A DNA stretch of 64,000 nt, taken from the NCBI GenBank assembly GCA_024699125.1, contig JAILQE010000007.1, forward strand, positions 2,236 through 66,235, in the 5' to 3' direction. Shown here piece by piece: positions 15,199 to 62,819 of the stretch. The notes beneath the pieces were generated by a model. The model ran no database searches. It saw nothing but the letters and a program-made list of their open reading frames with translations, and was not told where the DNA came from. Origin of the DNA: Candidatus Saccharimonadota bacterium (lineage in GTDB: Bacteria; Patescibacteriota; Saccharimonadia; Saccharimonadales; Saccharimonadaceae). A program made the translations under genes and the position numbers. Positions within the stretch are counted from its first letter, which is position 1; each line of letters opens with the position of its first letter.

Positions 15199-15275
15199 CA
15201 AATTCGTAACGACCATAGGTCGTTTTTTTTGTTGCCTCGCAACAAAAAAGAAGCGAAGCTTCTACGAATTTGTGG
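15196..15275 (+). other. Cloverleaf-like four-way junction trailer starting at the tRNA-Met CCA
   Basis: A 13-bp outer stem (15196-15208 / 15263-15275) encloses three abutting triloop hairpins at 15209-15223 (followed by a T-run, so also a terminator), 15225-15249 and 15250-15262. Confidence 0.7.
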
Positions 15276-15373
15276 AAGGACGGCAAGCGATAATGTTTTG
15301 CTTTGCAAAACATTTAGAGCGCCGGCCTACCATGAACAGGAAAAAGGGCGACCCGAAGGCCACCCCAAGATTT

Positions 15374-41316: not shown

Positions 41317-42262
41317 AAACGCCAAAGTCGTTCCGATTTTTATTACCATCAACAACGATTTTGTGCCGTATGCGGCTTGTGCGATCGCTTCGCTCACGCG
41401 TCATACTAATCCAAAGCGTCGCTATCGCATTATCATTTTGCATGACGGCATTAGTTTTCGCAATTATTACAAACTTCGCAACCTTGTTACTAGAAACTGT
41501 GAAATCCAGTTCCGCCGCATTACTCACAGCGTATATCTACGCGCGATTATTCGTTATTGTTCAACTCGCACCGGTAGTGGTGATTTCTTCTCATCCGCGG
41601 TTTATTACTATCGCTCATTTATTGCGCGCCTTTTCCCACAATACAACAAAGCAATCTACATCGATAGCGACGTGATTCTGCTCGACGACATCGCCGAACT
41701 TTTCGACAAGGATTTGAAAGGGAATCTCGTGGGCGCTTTGGTTGATCCAAAAGTTGAAATGGTACCAGAGTTCCGCGAATATGTTAACAAGGCCGTGGGT
41801 GTGCCGTACAAAGAATACGTTAACTCTGGCGTGCTACTTCTAGACCTTAAAGGCCTTCGCAAAGAGCACTACCTTTCGCGCATGGTTAACATGATCAATA
41901 AGTACGATGCGGATCTCGTAGCTCCTGACCAAGATTATTTGAACGTGATTTGCCGCGGCAAAATTTTGCATCTCGAACCAAAATGGAATATGCAGCCAGT
42001 ACGCGGCGATTTGCCAGAAGACACCAAGCTTATTCATTTCAACTTGTTTAAAAAGCCGTGGAATTATGACGACGTAGATTGTGAAGACATTTTTTGGGAA
42101 GCAGCTAGGCGCTCCGGTTTCCATAATGAACTTTTGCGCCGCAAAGAAAACTATTCGGTTGAAGACAAGCGTTTGAATGAAGCGCAACTTGAGGCTTTGA
42201 TTAAAAAGGCGGCAACTCTCGCAAAAACCAAAGAACCTCTCATCAAAAACGACGATCTATGA
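41279..42262 (+). CDS. Glycosyltransferase family 8
   Basis: IYIDSDVILLDD and NSGVLLLDL motifs. 38-nt overlap with the upstream gene, so the start is uncertain. Confidence 0.7.
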   Translation: MSIFNTGKSLLNRNAKVVPIFITINNDFVPYAACAIASLTRHTNPKRRYRIIILHDGISFRNYYKLRNLVTRNCEIQFRRITHSVYLRAIIRYCSTRTGSGDFFSSAVYYYRSFIARLFPQYNKAIYIDSDVILLDDIAELFDKDLKGNLVGALVDPKVEMVPEFREYVNKAVGVPYKEYVNSGVLLLDLKGLRKEHYLSRMVNMINKYDADLVAPDQDYLNVICRGKILHLEPKWNMQPVRGDLPEDTKLIHFNLFKKPWNYDDVDCEDIFWEAARRSGFHNELLRRKENYSVEDKRLNEAQLEALIKKAATLAKTKEPLIKNDDL

Positions 42263-42280
42263 TAAAATAAAACAAGGTAC

Positions 42281-42354
42281 GGCACTGTGGCGGAGTGGTT
42301 ACGCAGCGGTCTGCAAAACCGCGTACACCGGTTCAATTCCGGTCGGTGCCTCCA
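42281..42354 (+). tRNA. tRNA-Cys (anticodon GCA)
   Basis: Manual fold: GGCACTG acceptor, anticodon loop CTGCAAA, T arm CCGG-TTCAATT-CCGG, TCCA end. Confidence 0.85.
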
Positions 42355-42381
42355 TTTTTTTATGAAATAAAAAAATGGAGA

Positions 42382-42444
42382 CACCGGGCTTCGCCAACGG
42401 TGCCTCCGTCTCCAAAGAGCACCGGGCTACGCCAACGGGCCTCC
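42382..42444 (+). repeat. Two tandem degenerate copies of the tRNA-Cys T-arm/acceptor 3' half
   Basis: CACCGGGCTTCGCCAACGGTGCCTCC (42382-42407) and CACCGGGCTACGCCAACGGGCCTCC (42420-42444), compared with the tRNA's CACCGGTTCAATTCCGGTCGGTGCCTCC. Confidence 0.7.
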
Positions 42445-42458
42445 AAATTCTTGAAAGT

Positions 42459-42547
42459 GTGCTATAATTAAGTCATAAGAAAAGCGCCTCTAGGAAGCAC
42501 TTTTCTGGTTTGGTATCTAGTTAGTTAAACGACTAACTAGATTTTTT
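42459..42547 (+). ncRNA. Candidate ~73-nt small RNA (promoter + terminator, no ORF)
   Basis: TGCTATAAT (42460-42468). Hairpin TCTAGTTAGT-taaacg-ACTAACTAGA (42516-42541) followed by T6. No start codon in between. Confidence 0.35.
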
Positions 42548-42719
42548 CTTCGGTGCGGATTTACACCTTGGAAGAAGGACGCATAGCAGATTAAACTGTA
42601 TAGTCATCTGTCTCCTTTCCGGCGACCTGGTCACCCTAGAAAGATCGTTTAATGGTCACCTCACACAGCAAAAGCCGCGAGGCTTTCGCGTCGGCCCACT
42701 AAAGCTCCGAAGACCAACC
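42547..42719 (-). ncRNA. Unassigned structured region whose ends pair; weak resemblance to SRP RNA domain IV on the minus strand
   Basis: TCTTCGGTGC (42547-42556) pairs with GCTCCGAAGA (42704-42713). The minus strand reads GACCAGGTCGCCGGAAAGGAGACAGATGAC, compared with E. coli 4.5S ACCAGGUCAGGUCCGGAAGGAAGCAGCCAAGGCAGAUGAC, but it lacks the AGCA side of the symmetric loop. Possible minus-strand promoter TTGTAA / TAGATAAT at 42723-42752. Confidence 0.25.
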
Positions 42720-42782
42720 GCCATTATCTAAACACACGAAAAATCATTTTACAACCCCCTCCACCCCAGTTAAACGCAAGCC

Positions 42783-43343
42783 TTATAGCCGGTTAGCGTA
42801 AGCGGCAACTAAATCGTTGTCATAAAGTGGCTCTGGTAGATTGTTTAAACTGAAAAATTTTAGTTCGGAGCTTTCGGAATTGGTTTTCAAATCTAAATCC
42901 TTTGTATCGACTAATACTAAATACAAATTCGAGTTGTTATAGCAAACGTCGCCGTTTGGATAAACGCGGCGGCGGCCTTGGCCGGACACCACATCAATTA
43001 AAGTTAGGGAATTAGGCAAAACTTTAATGCCAGTTTCTTCAAACAGTTCGCGCGCCGCAGTGTCGCGCAGATCTTCGCCCAGCTCTTGGCAGCCACCCGG
43101 CAAGCACCACTCGCCGTTGTCGGAACGTTTTTCTAGCAAGATTTCACCGTTTTCATTTCGCACAATTACAGAAGAGCCAGTCTGGATAAACGGAATGTGT
43201 GAAATCCTTTCGTCTAGCGCCATCCGAAAAAGTACCGGATAGCCGCCGTAGTTCGCACTTAAGTTTAAAATCTCGTCTTCGCTCGAATTTTTTATAATTT
43301 CCACAAATTCTTCGTGGGAGTAGTCACGCATTTTCTTGTACAT
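42783..43343 (-). CDS. NUDIX hydrolase
   Basis: Nudix box GGCQELGEDLRDTAARELFEETG. Confidence 0.8.
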   Translation of the reverse strand: MYKKMRDYSHEEFVEIIKNSSEDEILNLSANYGGYPVLFRMALDERISHIPFIQTGSSVIVRNENGEILLEKRSDNGEWCLPGGCQELGEDLRDTAARELFEETGIKVLPNSLTLIDVVSGQGRRRVYPNGDVCYNNSNLYLVLVDTKDLDLKTNSESSELKFFSLNNLPEPLYDNDLVAAYANRL

Positions 43344-60498: not shown

Positions 60499-62679
<2,181 letters not shown>

Positions 62680-62743
62680 ATTGAACAGACGTTGGCGAAG
62701 CCCGGCAGTTCCCAACAAAAATAGACTTGCTGAAGCCTATGCA

Positions 62744-62819
62744 TGGTCTGGGTGATCAGATTCGAACTGACGACCTCAGCGTCCCGAACGCTGCGCGCTA
62801 CCAACTGCGCCACACCCAG
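62744..62819 (-). tRNA. tRNA-Pro (anticodon CGG)
   Basis: Manual fold: CTGGGTG acceptor, anticodon stem-loop CAGCG-TTCGGGA-CGCTG, T arm GTCAG-TTCGAAT-CTGAT, ACCA end. TGCTATAAT lies 9 nt upstream. Confidence 0.85.

Follow-up and report, generated by a model that had tools for sequence, protein, structure and literature searches.

The DNA analyzed here is a 64-kb window (one stretch of 64,000 nucleotides) from the genome of a Saccharibacteria organism. The assembly comprises 765,546 bp in 13 contigs, with ∼45% G+C and an estimated completeness of 98.8%, and the genome-wide counts given below rest on this assembly and on the 46 tRNA genes found in it. All 46 of these genes encode CCA at the 3' end, and ARAGORN places 13 of them in the window. 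One is tRNA-Cys(GCA), which is followed by a long hairpin and by two copies of its own 3' part; another is tRNA-Pro(CGG), on the opposite strand, with a related unit in its trailer (Table 1). An Rfam search of positions 42000-43000 matched the tRNA alone, everything else scoring far below the gathering score, and the same search at four other loci returned no family besides tRNA.

Table 1. Features of the tRNA-Cys(GCA) and tRNA-Pro(CGG) loci and their trailers (positions in the window)
Feature	Position	Strand	Basis or description
tRNA-Cys(GCA), CCA encoded	42281-42354	+	ARAGORN; Rfam tRNA match, 63.4 bits
Hairpin 1	42344-42386	+	Arm pairing and folding
Unit 1 left arm, TGGAGACACCG	42376-42386	+	Reverse complement of CGGTGCCTCCA with one G-to-A change
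Unit 1 module, GGCTTCGCCAA	42387-42397	+	GGC/GCC mini-stem, TTC loop, AA bulge
Unit 1 right arm, CGGTGCCTCC	42398-42407	+	Direct copy of tRNA-Cys 64-73 of 74, 10/10 identical
Unit 2, decayed	42417-42445	+	Sequence, alignment to tRNA-Cys; folding z = -0.95
Unit 2 left arm, GAGCACCG	42417-42424	+	
Unit 2 module variant, GGCTACGCCAA	42425-42435	+	
Unit 2 right arm, CGGGCCTCCA, one base lost	42436-42445	+	
tRNA-Pro(CGG)	62744-62819	-	ARAGORN
Terminator-like hairpin, ATAGGCTT-cagc-AAGTCTAT, then TTTTTG	62721-62740	-	Read from sequence
Module unit behind tRNA-Pro(CGG)	62680-62713	-	Sequence, alignment; folding z = -0.44
Pro unit left arm, GGGAACTGCCG	62703-62713	-	
Pro unit module, GGCTTCGCCAA	62692-62702	-	
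Pro unit right arm, CGTCTGTTCAAT	62680-62691	-	Decayed copy of the T-arm of Pro-CGG itself

An earlier note on this DNA described a hairpin that uses the end of tRNA-Cys as its 5' arm, CTCCATTTTTTTAT-gaa-ATAAAAAAATGGAG. The hairpin is present, yet it is longer than first claimed. Its arms (42344-42363 and 42367-42386) are 20 nt each and pair at 19 of 20 positions, with one mismatch. The left arm consists of the entire acceptor 3' strand, the CCA and TTTTTTTAT; the loop is gaa; and the right arm is made of ATAAAAAAA and TGGAGACACCG, the latter an inverted copy of the tRNA-Cys end. Folding of this hairpin yields -22.4 kcal/mol (z = -8.6), and none of 200 shuffles folds as well. For tRNA-Cys and its trailer folded together, z is -6.2. 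Two copies of the tRNA 3' part had also been noted, at 42382-42407 and 42420-42444, and both are there with the sequence described. They form part of units 1 and 2, which make up a diverged pair in the window. The right arm of unit 1 corresponds to the 11th to 2nd bases of tRNA-Cys counted from the 3' end, and unit 1 as a whole folds with z = -3.6. The term 'pseudo T-arm', used for these copies in the earlier note, does fit tRNA-Cys, but the fit is coincidental: CACCG is found within the Cys T-stem and also as the complement of the acceptor strand.

The 16-mer core of the Cys units was said to occur again on the minus strand at 62690-62705, and it does, with its 5' end 39 nt behind tRNA-Pro(CGG). 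It had been taken for a Cys-derived fragment sitting behind a Pro tRNA whose own 3' end is unrelated, and here our analysis leads to a different view on both points. What the two trailers have in common is only the 15-nt module CGGGCTTCGCCAACG, while the flanks follow the host tRNA. The right flank of the Pro unit, CGTCTGTTCAAT, looks like a decayed form of the T-arm of Pro-CGG itself, CGTCAGTTCGAAT. Because the right flanks copy the 3' part of the host tRNA, the shared piece is the module and not a fragment of tRNA-Cys. The Pro unit hairpin is no longer favoured over shuffles.

We analyzed the distribution of this module across the window and the genome. In the window, the 16-mer has four matches with ≤3 mismatches, compared to 0.61 expected, and none of 100 shuffles reached four. 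Genome-wide, all six copies with ≤1 mismatch lie ≤160 nt downstream of a same-strand tRNA, namely Cys (two copies), Pro-CGG, Arg-GCG and Thr-TGT (two copies), so the 16-mer is not a frequent motif unrelated to tRNA loci, the outcome that would have spoken against the earlier proposal. A seventh match, with two mismatches (C5:8530), has no tRNA near. The exact 11-mer GGCTTCGCCAA occurs six times in the genome, five times in tRNA trailers and once elsewhere; tRNA trailers account for 1.9% of the genome. Degenerate copies of the module are found behind tRNA-Asp as well. In the second of the Asp units, the direct copy is perfect though the inverted arm is degenerate. The motif of the Cys trailer is one member of a repeat family whose copies in this genome are almost all in tRNA trailers. 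The proposal that pieces move or recombine between trailers is supported too, since the same module stands behind Cys, Pro-CGG, Arg-GCG and Thr-TGT here and behind other tRNAs in 11 other species of the genus; finding one module behind different tRNAs implies that it spread or recombined from one trailer to another.

Each unit is an imperfect palindrome, composed of an inverted copy, a GC-rich apical module and a direct copy of the 3' part of the host tRNA. In an alignment of nine units, only the centre is constant, CG-GGCTTCGCCAA-CG, with its GGC/GCC mini-stem, TTC loop and AA bulge. To the right of the module comes the 3' part of the upstream tRNA itself, aligned from the first base, in 19 of 19 copies (8 here and 11 in other species); this count comprises the module copies that have an upstream tRNA, with alignment scores of 7-29, the weakest being those of the decayed Pro copy and the second Thr copy. 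The distance between the start of the direct copy and the tRNA 3' end is 11 nt (seven copies), 8 nt (one), 26 nt (two) or 29 nt (nine), and the start is always at CG. These starts are C66 or C48/G49 in units with module CGGGCTTCGCCAACG, and intact copies run to the encoded CCA. With other module types, the direct copy begins 18 nt before the 3' end, within the T-loop.

The left flank (registers read by eye) is the first part of the right flank in reverse complement and not Cys sequence. Nor does it match the 5' strand of the tRNA: the left arm reads CACCG in Cys, where the real strand has CACTG, and ACAGG in Arg, where the real strand has GTAGG. On a fixed alignment of the units, 69% of cells are paired, compared to 60% when shuffled (none of 500 shuffles as high), and this is an underestimate because bulges are out of register. 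In the stem of the module hairpin, nine pairs have changed on both sides, whereas shuffles give 5.0 (1 of 500 as high).

Copies of a tRNA's own 3' end lie behind 15-23 of the 46 tRNAs, depending on the criterion. The 10 nt before the CCA recur with ≤1 mismatch within 260 nt downstream of 15 of 46 tRNAs, as opposed to 1 of 46 upstream and 16 of 2064 non-self pairs. A looser 11-nt probe gave 17 of 46 downstream, 3 of 46 upstream and 100 of 2062 non-self pairs. Local alignment of each trailer to its own tRNA reached a score of at least 20 in 28 of 46 cases, versus 5 of 46 for upstream sequence. With neighbouring tRNA genes and non-3' matches taken out by eye before counting, 23 of 46 trailers copy the 3' part of their own tRNA, and for 12 of these 23 the start is a T-loop position exactly 18 nt from the 3' end. 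The trailers of tmRNA and RNase P RNA are without copies of their own ends. Of the 64 non-self hits that BLAST of the trailers gave, 31 lie in same-strand trailers of other tRNAs, 4 in trailers but antisense, 21 within tRNA genes and 8 in other places. Among the last eight, three belong to a trailer whose tRNA is partial and located at a contig end; on contig 7, two more follow an orphan stem-loop that ends in CCA.

Direct repeats of this kind bring to mind site-specific integration. Integrases leave direct repeats of the tRNA 3' segment, from the T-loop to the 3' end (the sublocation rule), and the trailers could be attL/attR scars in which the old 3' end was displaced downstream and the element later lost save for short remnants. 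The direct repeat of the own 3' segment at 15 of 46 tRNAs (23 of 46 by local alignment) agrees with such an origin, and older copies in distal position would suit repeated integration, albeit weakly. Fragments of tRNA genes arising from integration are described in PMC9897764. The attL/attR duplications left by integrases resemble the trailers in that a direct 3'-segment copy, often from the T-loop, lies downstream of an intact tRNA. Yet the repeats in the trailers are 15-150 nt apart, with no ORF, integrase or other element DNA between them. The sole tyrosine recombinase in the genome (Phage_integrase domain, C9:86596-87129) does not adjoin a tRNA, the nearest being ∼2.5 kb away. Moreover, the same short modules are inserted behind unrelated tRNAs, beyond the targeting of one integrase, and integration predicts neither the inverted copies nor their perfect contiguity with hairpins. 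We therefore consider integration scars a highly improbable source of the trailers.

The trailers are also set apart by their hairpins. There are 71 hairpins with at least 12 matched pairs in the genome, of which 25 are in tRNA trailers; with at least 16 pairs, 18 of 19 are in tRNA trailers. The trailer hairpins are terminator cores lengthened outwards as palindromes, with the extension running from the CA of CCA or from 7-11 nt inside the tRNA. Many of the first hairpins have the Rho-independent form, a GC-rich stem and then a T-run. The first hairpin, often such a lengthened terminator core, usually spans the stretch from the real CCA end to the first inverted copy. These hairpins behind many tRNAs are a lineage-specific repeat family of a very small Saccharibacteria genome.

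For comparison, we analyzed relatives. Within the genus, tRNA-Cys is conserved but its trailer is not: an own-end copy was seen by eye in 4 of 18 readable orthologous trailers, and each of the four matches the acceptor sequence of its own species. A covariance model of the unit has matches in 11 of 61 genus genomes. Outside this genome there are 14 hits, 11 of them ≤111 nt behind a same-strand tRNA, and the hosts of these 11 are Gly-GCC (four species), Phe (two), His, Trp and Met-CAT. Perfect head-to-tail double units stand behind tRNA-Gly in one species and behind tRNA-Trp in another. The exact 15-mer was found in 3 of 301 sampled genomes of the order: in this genome, in a genus-mate behind tRNA-Lys(CTT), and in one coding hit that we take as chance. 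A genus-mate has an own-end copy at 5 of 34 tRNAs analyzed, and a genome from another family in the order has one at 6 of 36 (neighbouring tRNAs were taken out by eye for these counts). In four of the latter six, the copy begins 18 nt from the end; the architecture there is the same, with related GC/GA-rich modules. We also followed tRNA-Leu(TAA) behind RNase J through 80 relatives; the tRNA is present at nine loci, and two of the nine have an own-end copy. Contigs of related strains, which share at most 0.26 of sampled words, carry variants of the Cys trailer, one with an additional unit. Among the sequencing runs behind this comparison, the two RNA libraries had small shares of the sampled words, and such libraries may include DNA.

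The compact, very GC-rich modules, with their GAA/GTA/TTC triloops and tandem G.A pairs, might suggest small, non-autonomous hairpin elements that owe their movement to a protein recognising folded single-stranded DNA (REP/RAYT-like, IS200-like or another enzyme) and targeting tRNA-like DNA loops or junctions. Insertion at fixed places (before C48/G49, before C66 and inside pseudo-T-loops) is consistent with this, as is a Y1 transposase of the IS200 type at a contig end. This Y1 copy is, however, a 75-aa internally deleted relic, and Y1_Tnp is present in 7 of 61 genus genomes and in none of the 10 other genomes with module hits. Since the transposase survives here as a relic and does not co-occur with the repeats, we rejected mobilisation by RAYT/IS200. 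To our knowledge, target-derived inverted arms are not a feature of the REP/RAYT or IS200 families. Like the trailer units, REP/BIME sequences are short, GC-rich repeats that form hairpins between genes, frequently close to terminators; but REPs stand behind many kinds of gene and have constant arms, whereas the trailer units are in tRNA trailers only and have arms that vary with the host tRNA. That some enzyme moved the modules as hairpin elements has, in our judgement, only a slim chance of being correct.

Two further candidates were rejected. Distances of 18 nt and 29 nt coincide with the hard stops that modified tRNA bases impose on reverse transcriptases, but no RVT_1 domain was found in the 98.8%-complete genome, and as a source reverse transcription was set aside, leaving the 18- and 29-nt starts as an unexplained coincidence. 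A CRISPR array was dismissed as well: the 'spacers' of the tandem units are identical to each other, not unique.

The origin that we favour, at somewhat less than an even chance, is fold-back copying of DNA (template switching) combined with unequal recombination and followed by decay. Quasi-palindrome template switching makes imperfect palindromes longer or more perfect by arm copying and leaves clustered changes that look compensatory. At a very stable small hairpin, the nascent strand would fold back, and neighbouring sequence would be copied. The arrangement 'tRNA end - hairpin' would become 'tRNA end - hairpin - inverted copy', and at the next hairpin a direct copy would be added. Tandem arrays would arise through unequal recombination, or slippage, among 3'-end copies, modules would pass between tRNA trailers via joins at CG or T-loop microhomologies, and copies would decay once formed. 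No essential function is assumed; RNA from read-through would form stem-loops bearing the copied 3' end. Template switching is known as a hotspot mechanism for point mutations, and we know of no description of it as the source of a tRNA-specific repeat family.

Several observations are in line with such copying of DNA. The copies are confined to trailers and oriented (6 of 6 16-mers, 5 of 6 exact 11-mers), and the arms derive from the host tRNA in 19 of 19 module copies. Because the left arm complements the copy by Watson-Crick pairing and does not reproduce the 5' strand of the tRNA, the units have the form that an inverted duplication predicts. Hairpin 1, inverted copy, module and direct copy are contiguous in 12 of 20 folded copies (≤3 nt from hairpin 1 to the closing stem), or in 16 of 20 if tandem units behind a previous copy count. 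Turnover is evident from the tandem units in two species, the additional unit in a strain, the 4 of 18 Cys trailers with a copy, and the folding of unit 2 and the Pro unit, now no better than that of shuffles. In one species, a clustered change of TTAG to CCAA created pairing with an upstream TTGG, the signature of a templated quasi-palindrome mutation. Moreover, no resident enzyme suits the rival DNA models: there is one recombinase, no RVT_1 domain was found, and the Y1 transposase is a relic. Copying at the DNA level would account for left-arm complementarity, contiguity, tandem arrays, turnover, decayed units and the clustered TTAG change.

A related system is known from E. coli. Behind its tyrT gene are tandem repeats, each with the last ∼19 nt of tRNA-Tyr, which are explained by unequal recombination. 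As in the trailers, repeated units stand behind a tRNA gene, and each ends in a 3'-end copy with CCA. Head-to-tail identical units of the tyrT type, ending in the tRNA 3' end, are seen in the Gly and Trp units and in the additional Cys unit of the related strain. But tyrT is a single locus in E. coli, whereas here a third to half of the tRNAs are involved, with inverted copies and with modules common to different tRNAs.

Other observations sit less well with fold-back copying. A generic process should lengthen the terminators of protein genes too, yet 18 of 19 long hairpins are in trailers, and the specificity for tRNAs is left unexplained. Intact copies stop at CCA, a boundary without an obvious reason at the DNA level, and 12 of 23 own-end copies begin exactly 18 nt from the 3' end. 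Recurrence in another family is easier to reconcile with a maintained function or a persistent mobile agent than with chance decay. Mismatches in trailer hairpins are asymmetric, with 9 G.G and 7 A.G on the tRNA-sense strand versus 1 C.T and 0 C.C, among copies that are not independent, and this points to structure of the sense strand; likewise there are 6 G.T versus 2 A.C, too few, and in copies too closely related, for a test of selection. Polarity of decay is weak, in that the proximal copy is better in three trailers, the distal in one and neither in one, among few trailers overall. Finally, template switching itself is inferred.

The main rival to this origin is an RNA element that acts in cis. 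In a tRNA precursor, the trailer could guide or shield maturation of the 3' end, much as t-elements do: hairpin 1 would pair with the CCA end, and the next stem-loop would show a copy of the tRNA 3' end. RNase III might then cut the long hairpin, and RNase P or PNPase might halt at the mimic. Such an element would matter in a lineage unable to repair CCA. We regard it as possible but rather doubtful.

The gene content of this organism is in keeping with an RNA element. CCA is encoded by 46 of 46 tRNA genes, and neither the PolyA_pol head domain of the bacterial CCA-adding enzyme nor an archaeal-type CCA-adding enzyme was found in the 98.8%-complete genome, a result that does not amount to proof of absence; among 41 relatives in the order, one has a PolyA_pol head domain. 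With the same reservation, RNase Z, the RNB family (RNase R/II) and RNase E/G were not found in this assembly. Found in the genome were RNase III, RNase J, a PNPase-like ORF with both RNase_PH domains, two ORFs with DEDD exonuclease domains, RNase P RNA and tmRNA. A limited literature search on CCA addition in the candidate phyla radiation returned nothing on this point, its hits concerning glycyl-tRNA synthetase.

Features of the trailers themselves also argue for a role as RNA. The arms of trailer hairpins are 16-25 bp long, compared to 12-15 bp in ordinary terminators. All seven exact or near-exact module copies in this genome are oriented as the tRNA, the direct copy stops at CCA as a mimic of a tRNA end would, and the stem of the module hairpin covaries (9 pairs changed versus 5.0 in shuffles). 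A closing stem, formed by inverted and direct copy, is predicted in most of the 20 folded copies, and the architecture is found in two families of the order. The fold of tRNA-Cys plus trailer (z = -6.2) agrees with this as well.

Against an RNA element, its occurrence is sporadic: 15-23 of 46 tRNAs here, 5 of 34 in a genus-mate, 6 of 36 in the other family and 4 of 18 Cys trailers. Between tRNA and element there is often a strong terminator-like hairpin, and with the palindromic extension located past the T-run, the element may be missing from most transcripts. The predicted mimic has a 3' overhang of 0-11 nt, and only in 4 of 20 folded copies is it 4 nt, as in a real NCCA end. Many units are decayed, and the inverted arm can be degenerate beside a perfect direct copy, as in Asp unit 2. 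The trailer of tmRNA, moreover, is without such a copy.

The t-elements of plant mitochondria, tRNA-like acceptor/T-arm structures that serve processing by RNase P/Z (PMC1920247), resemble the trailer units in being partial acceptor and T-arm mimics outside a tRNA gene, thought to be tRNA-derived. In contrast to t-elements, the trailer units are bacterial, stand in the trailer of the tRNA itself and copy the end of that tRNA, including CCA. Their 5' arm is the exact complement and not tRNA 5' sequence, they occur in tandem and decay, and RNase Z was not found in the genome.

A stronger version of the RNA proposal can be framed from these sequences. Precursors of Saccharimonadales tRNAs would carry a self-encoded mimic of the 3' end, a device for maturation and protection in cis that replaces the CCA-adding enzyme, RNase Z and the exonucleases for structured RNA. 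Such a device might, for instance, give RNase III or RNase P a defined cut and halt PNPase before it reaches the real CCA. We think this version unlikely. If it were true, the repeats would be what can be seen of a bacterial pathway for making tRNA 3' ends that has yet to be described.

Fold-back copying of DNA and a function in RNA are compatible, as repeats born by copying could be put to use later. Under either reading, the trailers are a specific sequence signature of this lineage. Copies of tRNA 3' ends as integration scars and tRNA-like processing signals as t-elements were known already (PMC9897764 for the scars, PMC1920247 for t-elements). A limited literature search returned no account of a palindromic, module-bearing family at a third to half of a bacterium's tRNAs, and nothing on such trailers in Patescibacteria. 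If the repeats did arise by copying of DNA, the trailers would document, in a minimal genome, how fold-back template switching and unequal recombination act in nature at tRNA genes, with birth, spread and decay visible within one genus, and annotators would be warned that pseudo tRNA 3' halves need not mean integration of a mobile element. If they act as RNA, they would point to an as yet unknown way of making and guarding the CCA ends of bacterial tRNAs, in an order where a CCA-adding enzyme was not found in 40 of 41 genomes sampled. The module hairpin is without a T-run on the tRNA strand; on the opposite strand it was flagged as terminator-like, with TCTCCATTTT following it.

CCA is encoded in all 46 tRNA genes of this organism's own genome. 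A domain search of the 98.8%-complete assembly did not find PF01743, the head domain of the bacterial CCA-adding enzyme, nor was this domain found in 40 of the 41 genomes sampled from the order. The corresponding archaeal-type domain, PF09249, was likewise not found in the own genome, and domain searches there found none of RNase Z, RNB and RNase E/G.

Trailers, the DNA just downstream of tRNA genes, show several further features (see table). Those of tRNA-Ile(GAT), an anticodon-CAT tRNA and tRNA-Ile(TAT) have in common a homologous element of ~60 nt, which reads GTGGAAGG.CGGCAAGCGA...TTAGAGCGCCG.CCTACCA and also contains a D-arm-like TTAGAGCGC. The sequence of its inner hairpin is wholly different between copies, with pairing kept. 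The anticodon TAT is uncommon for tRNA-Ile among bacteria; the gene carrying it here occurs alongside tRNAs with anticodon CAT.

The end of contig 6 truncates a partial tRNA-Leu-like gene, behind which trailer units with the pattern GGTGC(C/G)...CTAGC...GCGTCGCACCA stand three in tandem. This run is another array of the trailer-unit kind (inverted copy, GC-rich module and direct copy of the 3' part of the host tRNA). In many trailers, such as those behind tRNA-His on contig 10 and tRNA-Val(CAC) on contig 11, GC-rich hairpins interrupt pseudo T-loops (GGTTCGAAT ... ATCC). The loops of these hairpins read GAA, GTA or TTTA, and tandem G.A mismatches (GAGC/GCGA motifs) recur in them; the hairpins are predicted to be stable on the tRNA-sense strand only.

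The modules seen in tRNA trailers recur, with pseudo 3' ends (...TTCCCGCCCAC), behind an orphan stem-loop of ~40 nt on contig 7, at a locus where tRNA and Rfam searches detected neither a tRNA nor an Rfam family. This stem-loop, whose 3' end reads ...GTCCACCA, is directly preceded by a TATAAT-like motif and followed by a terminator palindrome with 22-nt arms (21 matched bp) that starts at ACCA. Immediately 3' of the trailer of tRNA-Cys(GCA) is GTGCTATAAT, the same –10-like motif as is seen ahead of tRNA-Pro(CGG), and ~45 nt beyond it comes a 12-bp palindrome with a T-run. This stretch, for which an Rfam search gave no match, could specify a putative short unannotated transcript of ~70 nt.

Features described in this part, with contigs numbered as in the organism's own assembly
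Feature	Location	Strand	Source
~60-nt trailer element	within window 15199-15330	+	
~60-nt trailer element	within window 32275-32405	-	
~60-nt trailer element	contig 2, behind tRNA-Ile(GAT)		
tRNA-Ile, anticodon TAT	window 32406-32482	-	tRNA gene search
Stretch behind Cys trailer	window 42459-42550	+	
Palindrome with T-run	window 42515-42542		
GGCTCTGG/GGTTCCGG-type repeats	window 62400-62560	-	
Partial tRNA-Leu-like gene and trailer units	contig 6, 72900-73198 (outside window)		
Orphan stem-loop, palindrome and trailer modules	contig 7, about 77900-78090 (outside window)	-	
75-aa ORF, IS200-type Y1 transposase motifs	contig 7, 80310-80537 (contig end)	-	

In the 75-aa ORF of contig 7, an N-terminal HUH motif (KYHLVFAPKYRR) is fused directly to a C-terminal tyrosine motif (GYYVDTVG); the ORF is an internally deleted relic of an IS200-type Y1 transposase. 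Downstream of the tRNA-Pro(CGG) trailer lies a lengthy stretch of repeats of the GGCTCTGG/GGTTCCGG type, whose putative product, if the stretch is coding, would be a low-complexity repeat.
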